DNA of 64,000 nt from Candidatus Omnitrophota bacterium (GTDB lineage: Bacteria; Omnitrophota; Gorgyraeia; Zapsychrales; Zapsychraceae). Shown here piece after piece: positions 4,902 through 7,900 of this stretch. A model generated the notes under the pieces. It had not been told where the DNA came from, made no database searches, and was given only the letters and a program-made list of their open reading frames with translations. Each line of letters opens with the position of its first letter. Position 1 is the first letter of the stretch. The stretch is from contig JANQMA010000004.1 in the NCBI GenBank assembly GCA_028280285.1, forward strand, positions 15,820-79,819, given 5' to 3'. Both the position numbers and the translations under genes were made by a program.

Positions 4902-7900
4902 ATGCGAATATTTAAAGGTAAATATAAATCAGTTTTTAAACAGGTGCTCAGTGTATTGACGGCGGGCATATTTGTTGTTAGTTCGACTGTTGTACCAATC
5001 GTACCTGCGAGCGCGCAAGGTATAGCCCTCTCTTTGCCCAAGCCGGGCACGATGGTGGGATTAAGTGATATCTACCAGCCGACATTACTTCAAGCCATCA
5101 CCATTCATCCGGACAATCCCTTGCGTTTTGATTTTATTGTAAGCCACGGCGATGATTACCAAACAGAAGCCGAGTTTAAAAGTGATTCTACCAAACTGAT
5201 TAAATATTTTCTTGCCTCGCTGACAATACCGGAGGATGAGATGTGGGTCAACTTATCTCCGTATGAGAAGGACCGCATTATCCCGGAAAGCTTTGGCTAC
5301 ACGGAGATGGGACGTGACCTGCTTGCTCAGGACTATCTGCTCAAACAATTGACCGCGTCGCTCATGTATCCTGAAGGAGAATTAGGCCAGGAATTTTGGG
5401 CAAAGGTAAAAGCGCAAATAGATGCTCATCGCTCGTCGCTCGATGCTCACGGTGAAATACAAGTATCTAGCATCGAGCATCTAGCATCGATGTTTAATAA
5501 GGTCTGGATTGTCCCTGATCAAGCCGAAGTCTATGAGCGGGATAATACTGTCTTTGTGGTTAACAGTCATTTGAAGGTGATGCTTGAGGAGGATTATCTA
5601 GCGAGCCAAGAAAGTGGTCAGTGGTCAGTGATCAGTGATCAGTCAAATAATACGACCACAGACCACAGAGCACAGACCACGCAAGTTACCCGCGAAATCA
5701 TTATTCCCGCTATTGAAGCCGAGATCAACACCGGCCAAACCTTTGCCAATCTCCGTCAGATCTATCATTCGATGATCCTGGCGACATGGTACAAAGTTGC
5801 TTTACAAGAAAGCCTGCTCGGCAAGATCTATATGGATCGTAACAAGGTTAAGGGGGTAGACGTCAAAGACCGCGATGTAAAATTCAAGATTTACGATCAG
5901 TATCTAGAAGCTTTCAAGTTAGGCGCCTACAACTATATTAAAGAAGAGTACGATCCAGTAGCACAGCAAATCATTCCACGTAAATATTTTTCTGGTGGAG
6001 CCCAGGCTGTTGATGCTGCTATGTTGAAAAGACATTCGGGCGATCCGGCAAGTTTGCCTCCACATATACAGAATAATATTAGAGCAACAACAAGGTTATT
6101 GTCATCCGTTATTACTGCCGATTTAAACAGAGCCTTGGAAGCAAGCCTTGTGCCAATTGGATTTGAAAGTATTGATGGGGATAGTTTAAAAGATTCTTTG
6201 GTTTCCGGTGCGTCCTATGAAAGCGAAGTAGATGATGTTATTAAGGTTAGACATTATACCGAAAGTGCTGGTATTGGTTTTGAGTTTTCTTTTCAAGATA
6301 AAACAAAGCCTGTTCGTTTTTCCCTTAGTTTTAAAAATCCAAAAACAGTCGAAAGTATGATTACTGACCCTGAGTCTGATTTTATCAAAAAACATAGTAC
6401 TGAAGTATATGCCAGAATCATTATGTGGCTTAATGACTTTCAGGTGGAGACTTTATCTTCGATGAGCGCTTATGACAATAAAGATAGGCCGAAAGAGGCC
6501 TTCCGAAATTTTAACCGCAAAGTTGCCCAAGCCCTTGATCCGAATGTTGATTTGGATAGTGTGGTTACTGAAGAAGGGGATCTTGTTAATTTTAATATCA
6601 AAGCATTGATGCAGAGTTTAAGTAGGGGGCAAGCTTTAGATAATTTAAGCGAATGGGTCAAGTCAAACAATTTGCAAGATCCGGCGCAATTAGAAGATCA
6701 AGTCGATTTTGCTGATTTGCCAGAAGATTTTAAGAGTTATAAACAAGAAATTACTTCAATATTAAAACGGACAATTAATTTTCTACAAAAACTTATTCCG
6801 TCTTATGAATTATCAGAAAGTGGGGTCTGGAATTTTGATGCTCTTCTTGAGATATCATCAGAGGAGCAGAAAAAAATTGATTACCTTAAGGATTTTATTG
6901 CACAAATAGAAGATAGAGTTACTGAAATTAACAACGCAGAGAATTATCAATCGTTATATAATGGGGCAAGTGGATTTTCCGCAATGCTGGTTAGCTTTGA
7001 CGAAGATGTCTTGTCGGGTGATACGGTTGCACAGGGTAAGCTTTTAGAATCAATGAAGGAAGTTTCCAGCGCAAGCAAGCGTTTGTCACAAATAGTTACT
7101 GCCCCCTTATTAATGGAAATGCAAATTAGAGATCACGCACCAGACGCGGCGGGTTTGACGGATGTTTTGGGTTTAACGGATTTAAAGGATTTAAGCTCGG
7201 AACAAATATTCGAGTATATGGTTAAAGGCACTGGTTATGAGGATGAGGTCAGTGAAGTGATGATTCGAAAAGGGTCAGAGATCTCTGCCTTTAAAGTTCA
7301 TTTTAAATTGAAAGATGTTGATGAACCAAGTACAGGCGTAGATCAACAGGAAGAGCGAAGGGATGTTATTTTCCCGTCATTAGTTATTTATTATAGAGGA
7401 AGTGCGGTTACGGGTATTGAGTCTAATTTAGCTACTACTGAAAATGAAAATTTACTTAGGTTTAGGAGTGAGCATGTTGTTGAGATGTTTGCGCGTGCTT
7501 TACATATGATAGATGATTTGGGCTACAGTAGTACTAGGGTTAATACGGTGGATGATTCAGGTCAATTTGAATCATTTTTAGGGCGTGTTGCTACATTTTT
7601 AAACCCCGAATATGATTTCGATTCTGATCAAGCGCAACCTTTTAGCGATACAAAAATTATCAATTCTCAAGGGAAAGAAGGAATCTATATCAATGTTCCT
7701 GCATTATTGTCAACAGCACCAGCACTCGCTGATGAAGCCAGTTTAGAACAAGTCGGGGGGATTGATTTTAACCCAGCTGCGATGAATTTACAAATTAGGC
7801 GTGATGGAAACGGCGTGGCGCTTCCTTTCAGTGAGCAGCCGCCGGAGATCATGCAGATTGAAGGGCTTGTGCCTGTGATTATCAATATAGTGCCTGCCAA

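Follow-up and report, generated by a model that had tools for sequence, protein, structure and literature searches.

Introduction

Rickettsia palindromic elements (RPEs) are palindromic repeats that lie in frame within Rickettsia genes (Ogata et al. 2000, 2002; reviewed in PMC10969869), and in-frame fusions can also arise from MITEs, the miniature transposable elements with inverted repeats (PMC10969869). Repetitive extragenic palindromic (REP) elements and the related REPINs are mobilised by RAYT transposases (PMC3116915), and bacterial heptameric repeats, which are over-represented in intergenic DNA, typically consist of four heterogeneous units and are sometimes inverted (PMC4692102). Here, we describe a hairpin repeat with arms of tandem heptamers at positions 5612-5684 of a 64,000-nt stretch of contig JANQMA010000004.1 from a Candidatus Omnitrophota bacterium (the whole stretch is referred to as the window). 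The repeat is translated as part of an intact gene for a 1040-aa protein (4902-8024), where it occupies a linker that is rewritten by palindromic repeats in many relatives.

The locus resembles the RPE case in that a dispersed palindromic family is found both between genes and in frame in intact genes, where it is translated at a site tolerated by the fold. Dispersal, hairpin formation, in-frame position in an intact gene and, according to a predicted model, location in a loop were all found for the repeat described here. In contrast, RPEs measure about 150 bp, carry a conserved peptide of their own and belong to Rickettsia (PMC10969869), whereas this element is about 70 nt long, consists of heptamers and comes from Omnitrophota, and is set apart from them by this description. 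Moreover, RPE is one element in many unrelated genes, whereas here a single site of one protein family houses many unrelated elements, with no net gain in protein length. With heptameric simple sequence repeats, such as the cyanobacterial short tandemly repeated repetitive (STRR) sequences and the arrays of Xanthomonas and Nostoc (PMC4692102), the element shares tandem 7-nt units with one or two variable positions, a mostly intergenic location, an array length of about four units and inverted pairs able to form stem-loops. It differs from these in its regular inverted pair of four plus four units, in being a discrete dispersed element, in its occurrence in Omnitrophota and in its presence inside coding sequence as well.

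REP and REPIN elements are likewise imperfect palindromes, short and extragenic, whose single-stranded DNA or mRNA folds into hairpins; they occur as several families per genome and fill spacers (PMC3116915). However, no RAYT (Y1) gene is present among the 38 window ORFs (open reading frames) scanned, and the inverted arms form a hairpin but are tandem heptamer arrays rather than a REP motif or unique 16-20-mer. The diversity of units is also far greater here, with at least eight types in 64 kb. Like a MITE, the element is a small, non-autonomous inverted repeat that sits in a gene without breaking its frame, but neither an evident target-site duplication at the ends of its four full copies nor, in the window, a related insertion sequence was identified, and the inverted repeat makes up the entire element. 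The single case is a further example of a known phenomenon. As far as the literature searched shows, three aspects appear to be undescribed, namely the uniform architecture of 4+4 heptamers, the occurrence of such elements in Omnitrophota and the repeated occupation of one loop in a very large uncharacterised protein family; the main Omnitrophota genomics paper makes no mention of repeats.

Results

A heptamer hairpin repeat is read in frame within the host gene

The coding copy of the repeat, termed type A (5612-5684, + strand), was delineated by sequence inspection, Tandem Repeats Finder and folding, and codes for residues 238-260 of the host protein (SGQWSVISDQSNNTTTDHRAQTT). Its left arm (5613-5643) comprises two GTGGTCA units followed by two GTGATCA units and is separated by a 10-nt loop (5644-5653) from the right arm (5654-5680), in which four (C/A)GA(C/G)CAC units form an imperfect complement of the left arm. 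The two arms are complementary at 19 of 24 positions. Tandem Repeats Finder reported the left arm as 4.4 copies of AGTGATC (period 7, 95% matches) and the right arm as 3.9 copies of GACCACA (period 7, 90% matches). Read in the frame of ORF 4902-8024, positions 5613-5681 give the stop-free sequence SGQWSVISDQSNNTTTDHRAQTTQ. An initial annotation had placed a member of an intergenic repeat family in frame inside this ORF, and both the uninterrupted reading and the spacer copies of the same family described below bear this out.

RNA folding confirmed that the element is capable of forming a hairpin. The sense RNA folds at -25.3 kcal/mol (z = -4.3), a value equalled by none of 200 shuffled sequences, and the antisense strand at -32.9 kcal/mol (z = -4.8). 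The sense fold is one long hairpin whose 6-bp segments are split by single mismatches, and the mRNA strand has A-C mismatches at the positions where the antisense strand forms G-U pairs. Sense folding was weaker than antisense folding in 10 of 14 coding copies, so that the coding hairpins do not have the look of an mRNA-optimised structure. We also considered this strand asymmetry as a clue to the strand used in single-stranded-DNA transposition, which was discarded as other unit types of the window show the opposite asymmetry. The GT-rich 5' arm was likewise rejected as a sign of orientation bias, because the two strands of a palindrome have this feature in common. Rfam covariance models gave no match at E <= 1 in 5350-5750, and in the entire window they matched two tRNAs only.

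The sequence of the units determines whether an array can be translated. In a pure GTGATCA array an in-frame TGA occurs once per three units, and three consecutive GTGATCA units include an in-frame TGA whichever frame is read. The longest perfect run in the coding copy is two units (GTGGTCA twice, GTGATCA twice), and both in this copy and in a copy in a related gene on contig L001 the very codons that would be TGA read TGG or, in the other arm, CGG/CGA. As unit variants such as GTGGTCA, in which the codon becomes TGG (Trp), avoid the stop, only copies of this kind are able to persist in genes. TGATCA is itself palindromic, and GTGATCA arrays can therefore also self-pair.

The host gene is intact and belongs to a large Omnitrophota family

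The host gene (4902-8024, + strand), defined by its ORF and by family alignment, has an ATG start and encodes 1040 aa. The protein starts with a hydrophobic helix and has a conserved N-terminal domain (about 375 aa), within which the linker lies; a middle region unique to this protein is followed by a conserved C-terminal module, GGIDFNP..., of some 60 aa. Conservation is limited to residues ~1-375 and ~945-1010, and the middle region differs between members. Judging from the hydrophobic N-terminal helix, which is followed by ASA-Q, the protein is plausibly secreted. It has 4644 relatives at E <= 0.001, and those that are named come from Candidatus Omnitrophota; in a scan of species genomes, all 576 loci encoding the family were found in Omnitrophota-type metagenome-assembled genomes (MAGs). 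Sequence profiles of Pfam, NCBIfam and PDB gave no match to the host protein, and neither did Foldseek against PDB.

The initial annotation had raised the possibility that the ORF is a decaying gene. This was not supported, since the gene shows neither a stop nor a frameshift and its product keeps all 49 invariant columns of a 77-sequence family alignment, among them the GG...G..P positions of the C-terminal module. An identical protein of 1040 aa is also on record as a single product.

Family members have in common a signal-like helix, the N-terminal domain and the C-terminal module, which has the form GGIDxNP across the family. Between the N- and C-terminal modules they carry very different inserts, often normally cytoplasmic enzymes or signalling domains. 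The enzymes include phosphoglucomutase, UDP-glucose pyrophosphorylase, phosphoglycerate kinase, hexokinase, triose-phosphate isomerase and aldolase. A stand-alone phosphoglucomutase gene (2577-3998) lies two genes upstream of the host gene.

The repeat replaces a flexible linker of constant length

An alignment of 60 N-terminal domains places the element in a hypervariable block between LKVMLEEDYLA and REIIIPAIEAEVN, and every relative in this alignment has a linker of similar length at the site. In a set of 81 family genes, linkers of 36 aa are the most frequent and often read ..N.FGLD....AEVISGVSSE..., and the median length is 37 aa for strongly folding linkers vs 36 aa for the others. As the length is unchanged with or without a hairpin, the element replaces the linker, and the roughly 23 residues are not an added indel, a possibility that had been considered.

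AlphaFold2 with the 77-sequence alignment modelled the N-terminal domain with a predicted local distance difference test (pLDDT) score of 82-95 on either side of the element, vs only 54-57 for residues 241-260. Residues 239-253 were modelled as mostly coil with one short helix, and an earlier model from 13 sequences, poor overall, showed residues 237-259 as low-confidence coil (pLDDT <50). The peptide encoded by the hairpin (SGQWSVISDQ - loop - TTDHRAQTT) is hydrophilic. In the predicted model the element site is thus a permissive, flexible surface loop compatible with the fold, in agreement with the earlier suggestion of an insertion tolerated in a loop.

The host gene contains a second in-frame heptamer hairpin, overlooked in the initial annotation, with GCTCGTC and ATCGAGC units (5424-5490, + strand), which codes for residues 175-196 (DAHRSSLDAHGEIQVSSIEHLA) and folds at -27.2 kcal/mol (z = -3.7). 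It is the sole copy of its unit type in the window. Compared with 59 relatives, this segment shows two small insertions, DAHRSS and SSIEH, around residues that still align. The AlphaFold2 model gave a pLDDT of 58-62 at residues 181-200, the site of this element.

Type A copies are dispersed in spacers of the window

The pattern GTGATCAGTGATCAG, allowing up to two mismatches, matched 12 times in the window compared to 0.08 matches expected. Pattern scan, hairpin scan and alignment identified three intergenic type A copies on the + strand: an almost loopless copy of 4+4 heptamers at 9935-9989, between the rpsA terminator (9872-9934) and tyrS; a copy at 39483-39530, 5' of the gene for ribosomal protein S13; and a copy at 40054-40128, which separates the S13 gene from the gene that starts at 40143. 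Counted on the alignment, about 55 of 62 arm positions (~89%) agree between the coding copy and the 9935 copy, and the loops differ. The arms of the coding copy also resemble those at 39483 and 40054, where flanks are unrelated and loops are different. An ORF at 9949, derived from the 9935-9989 copy, reads (M/V)ISDQTTDHRTQITQ and is spurious, because it overlaps tyrS (tyrosyl-tRNA synthetase gene) in another frame. The initial annotation was correct in calling this ORF spurious and in relating its repeat to the coding copy, but the two copies are not identical.

Two half copies were detected on the + strand by repeat scan and alignment. One, in the spacer 3' of the host gene (8153-8184), is a right-arm-type array only, with ACAGACC/ACAGAAC units. 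The other, also of right-arm type, lies at the end of ORF 54547-55047 (55024-55051), where it supplies this cytidylyltransferase-like ORF with its eight C-terminal residues (HRAQTTEH) and its stop codon. The 9935-9989 copy is directly abutted by a canonical terminator-like hairpin with T run at 9872-9934, following rpsA. As a terminator is already present, the heptamer hairpin is not needed as a terminator there.

Beyond the window, the exact 20-mer GGTCAGTGATCAGTGATCAG was found in at least 120 metagenome contigs (loci L081-L200) with G+C contents of 0.33-0.71, many of them from peat or soil. Nearly all matches lay outside long ORFs and none in the host protein family, indicating that the heptamer array is widespread and normally non-coding. 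These contigs vary, with long pure arrays in L090 and L101 and perfect long hairpins with extra flanking inverted repeats in L093.

Relatives carry palindromes at the same site

The initial annotation had raised the possibility of a recent insertion and of an indel unique to this genome. The element is not unique: the relative P0048 (52% identical; contig L001 of ENA, 8.7 kb) has a GTGATCA/TGACCAC hairpin too, located at the identical site and read in the same frame. Its DNA reads AGTGATCAGTGGTCAGTGATCAGTGATCAG, loop, CTGACCACCGACCACCGGTCACTGACCACTGA, and the element itself encodes the peptide QWSVISDQ...LTTDHRSLTTE. Near-identical peptides were found in two further relatives: the linker of P0038 (61% identical) reads SGQWSVISDQSKNTTTEHGTQTTQ at the peptide level, and that of P0004 contains ...LTTDHRSLTTQ.

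Strong folding at this site is not confined to type A. Linkers folding at <= -30 kcal/mol per 100 nt were found in 27 of 81 genes, and they hold at least a dozen unrelated elements, comprising heptamer hairpins of various units as well as GC-rich, REP-like palindromes. Other heptamer units at the linker were GTCATCA/TGACGAC (L003, L006, L007), GTCACAA, CAGCTAT (L043), GACCATA (L055, L009), GACGAAG (L024), GTTCGTA (L057) and CCCAAGG (L004). The GC-rich, REP-like palindromes without heptamers encode RRGLIHQTQDKGMINHAPT (L013, L036, L038), ...EAISNQIASSP...PRNDK (L021), ...MDSRFPGNDK (L045) and PPSPLFKKAG...LDKEGEGG (L054).

To compare the linker with its surroundings, densities of strong hairpins were computed over 1.13 Mb of related loci, in which linkers total 9 kb. 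Per kb, linkers held 1.55 strong hairpins, compared to 0.031 for the remainder of the family genes, 0.039 for other long ORFs and 0.39 for the remaining, mostly non-coding DNA, a class that includes small genes and constrained spacers. The linker density was thus 50 times that of the rest of the family genes (Fisher p = 2.6e-17). Some matches outside the linker class, which was defined by a regular expression, are linkers missed by the pattern or lie upstream of the start codon, and the contrast is therefore conservative.

Coding and intergenic copies are also linked outside the window, in a second genome. The linker hairpin at L024:8734-8790 is about 88% identical to a spacer copy 8.5 kb away (L024:179-234), and the matching segment is a discrete ~66-nt block between unrelated flanks. 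Together with the copy pairs of the window, this argues for copying between sites.

Three loci from one MAG (JAJDCA01; L013, L036, L038) are paralogues that share one REP-like linker palindrome, and the linker hairpins of two family genes on L054 are identical (L054:5831, L054:10149). Linker elements are inherited via gene duplication, or are possibly homogenised between paralogues. A neighbour-joining tree of 112 N-terminal domains, from which the linker was excluded, was star-like, with P0001 near P0038 and the other bearers of type A scattered. As such a topology cannot separate inheritance from repeated gain, the tree was dropped as an arbiter between them.

In one relative, an in-frame heptamer hairpin lies just before the conserved C-terminal GGIDxN module (L003:2623-2685; ...NREASFVKREAQQNTRDASRDTNDDEVGGIDMNA). 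On the evidence of this relative, the junction with the C-terminal module is a second place in the family that tolerates such elements.

A class of 4+4 heptamer hairpins fills spacers

Type A is one of several repeats in the window with a common architecture of four heptamers, a loop and four complementary heptamers. All window genes lie on the + strand and are tightly packed housekeeping genes, comprising an rpoBC/ribosomal protein cluster, tRNA synthetase genes and metabolic genes, and intergenic DNA amounts to only 3.7 kb. A heptamer hairpin is present in 11 of the 22 spacers of at least 60 nt. At least eight unit types occur in the 64 kb, including GGTTTTA, GTCATTA, GCCGTAA, GTTGTTA, AGCGTAT and GCTCGTC. 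Irrespective of the unit type, arms are about four units (28 nt) long, units within an arm differ at one or two positions, and full elements form discrete, dispersed blocks of ~55-75 nt. An arm length that stays so constant suggests that the elements share a mechanism of generation or recognition. Spacer hairpins start 4-25 nt past the upstream stop codon, except at 9935, where the terminator lies between, and end 6-26 nt before the next start codon, so that spacers are almost filled.

A scan for hairpins with 24-nt arms and at least 18 of 24 complementary positions found 14 strong hairpins in the window, at least ten of them heptamer-periodic, and none in a shuffled control of 10 loci. This threshold was relaxed from a stricter one of 19 of 22 positions, which misses arms with one mismatch per heptamer.

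Apart from type A, repeat and hairpin scans located the following intergenic heptamer hairpins, all on the + strand. The element at 4013-4084 has GGTTTTA and AACCTAA units, four per arm, and that at 12897-12957, 3' of nusG, has GTCATTA/TTGGTCA units. GCCGTAA and TATGGCT units followed by a T run are found at 44974-45037. Type B (GTTGTTN/ACTAACA) occurs at 48341-48418 and as a second copy at 52852-52914, and an element with AGCGTAT and CTAAACG units lies at 56807-56877. The element at 1798-1925 departs from the class in having 8- to 9-nt units. Two further, GC-rich spacer palindromes lack heptamer periodicity and may be terminators or another repeat type; one (25793-25856) follows an ORF of elongation factor G size and the other (58992-59056) an ORF ending at 58996.

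The STRR consensus units of heterocystous cyanobacteria are CCCCAGT, TTGGTCA and CAACAGT. The second of these occurs in the 12897 element, and type A (GTGGTCA) is one base off; the host is not a cyanobacterium.

Discussion

A probable, if by no means settled, explanation of these data is that a dispersed, non-autonomous hairpin repeat of REP/MITE-like character is tolerated in a permissive loop of an intact gene. A dispersed hairpin repeat would have been copied into the DNA of the variable linker of about 36 residues that joins the two halves of the N-terminal domain, and the original linker residues would then have been lost under a constraint on length. Only stop-free, in-frame copies would survive. 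The repeat would be transcribed and translated, with its hydrophilic peptide standing in for the ordinary linker in a manner that the protein tolerates. In other family members the same loop has been occupied by many different palindromic repeats. The data show the structure of the element, its repeat family, its in-frame reading, the intact state of the gene, the position in a loop and the recurrence and enrichment of hairpins at this site, and we infer the arrival by insertion or copying with subsequent loss of the old linker, the manner in which copies spread and the absence of a selected role for the hairpin in the host gene. Most likely, no other site in these genes is nearly as permissive as the linker. 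A hairpin already in place may also attract more elements of this kind; REPINs reportedly insert next to or within REPINs already present (PMC3116915), which would give a self-reinforcing hot spot at the linker.

Several observations weigh against this explanation. A simple insertion predicts about 23 extra residues, but the linker has a normal length, so that loss of the old linker must be assumed. The density of strong hairpins in the linker is about four times that of non-coding DNA (Fisher p = 9e-5), which pure tolerance does not predict. No transposase, of the Y1 type or other, that could have spread the hairpins was found among the 38 window ORFs scanned with Pfam, and a by-eye alignment check revealed no target-site duplication at the ends of the four full type A copies, whose flanks are merely A/T-rich. 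P0001 and P0038 have the same left-arm peptide though their domains are only 61% identical, which could reflect constraint or gene conversion rather than neutrality. Finally, the counts of occupied linkers are not independent, as paralogues inherit linkers.

Some of these observations would be accounted for if the hairpin were kept for a function, for instance as an mRNA structure that slows ribosomes between the domain halves and so aids co-translational folding or export, or as a DNA/RNA processing or regulatory site for which repeat families are interchangeable. A strong hairpin derived from unrelated sequences is found exactly at the linker in a third of the members, it is enriched both over the rest of the same genes and over non-coding DNA, linker length is preserved and the arm peptide of P0001 and P0038 is more conserved than the domain overall. 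Furthermore, type A (GTGATCA/TGACCAC) and GTCATCA/TGACGAC are set apart by a paired substitution, G-C to C-G, that affects both arms. However, both unit types also exist as intergenic families (L022:5059), and the apparent compensatory change can therefore stem from two separate insertions. Two thirds of the members, including those with the common 36-aa 'FGLD...AEVISGVSSE' form, have no notable linker structure (-10 to -29 kcal/mol), and the family can thus do without the hairpin. Most coding copies fold less strongly in the mRNA sense than on the opposite strand, and the same elements occur as ordinary spacer repeats of the same genomes. Taken together, we regard a selected function as unlikely. 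A broader version holds that a hairpin slot is maintained: either selection or hairpin-seeking insertion would keep a strong DNA or RNA hairpin at one coding point in a third of several thousand paralogues, filled interchangeably by unrelated repeats, with the 4+4 heptamer hairpins constituting a distinct, cross-phylum class of mobile elements. To this we give a low probability, of much the same order.

Similarly low is the probability that the hairpin has grown in place, with slippage amplifying a heptamer and template switching (quasi-palindrome correction) building the other arm, gradually and at constant length. This would agree with the unchanged linker length, with the lack of both transposase (in the ORFs scanned) and target duplication, and with the arms of 5424-5490 flanking residues that still align with relatives. 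Slippage has been proposed as the origin of heptameric repeats (PMC4692102), and many units in one 4+4 architecture are what a general process, not a single mobile sequence, is expected to yield. What speaks against in-place growth is that coding and intergenic copies are linked by discrete blocks of 62-66 nt, 88-89% identical, with the same heterogeneous unit order in unrelated flanks, and that complex, GC-rich palindromes without heptamers fill the linker in other members. The latter also argue against the heptamer tract being a phase-variation switch, in which adding or losing a single 7-nt unit would alter the reading frame and switch this family member off or on, as in contingency loci. 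Such a switch would suit a unit length that is not a multiple of three and a gene from a very large paralogous family whose products are probably surface-exposed. Yet the units are heterogeneous, with at most two perfect ones in a row, and known phase-variation switch tracts are far longer. In addition, the match was broken at the linker in none of the 79 retrieved loci, a sample that favours full-length matches, and we therefore consider a switch very unlikely. Least probable, and hardly credible, is that the ORF is decaying or an annotation artefact in which the repeat marks a former spacer between two genes. Such repeats are otherwise intergenic in the window, but in thousands of relatives conserved family sequence flanks the element on either side without a change of frame, no invariant residue is missing, both flanks fold as one domain in the AlphaFold model and the protein is recorded as one product. 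We thus favour a dispersed repeat tolerated in the linker.

With regard to repeat biology, the uniform four-heptamer arms and the occurrence of the 20-mer across contigs of 33%-71% G+C point to a common generating or mobilising mechanism. For annotation, these repeats create spurious ORFs (9949) yet supply real tails (54547-55047) and loops, and database peptides of the SVISDQ/TTDHR type are accordingly not all artefacts. For protein evolution, the Rickettsia case is extended to Omnitrophota: a selfish or neutral DNA hairpin can harmlessly replace a loop, and hairpin repeats have many times rewritten a single loop in a protein family that is very large and uncharacterised.

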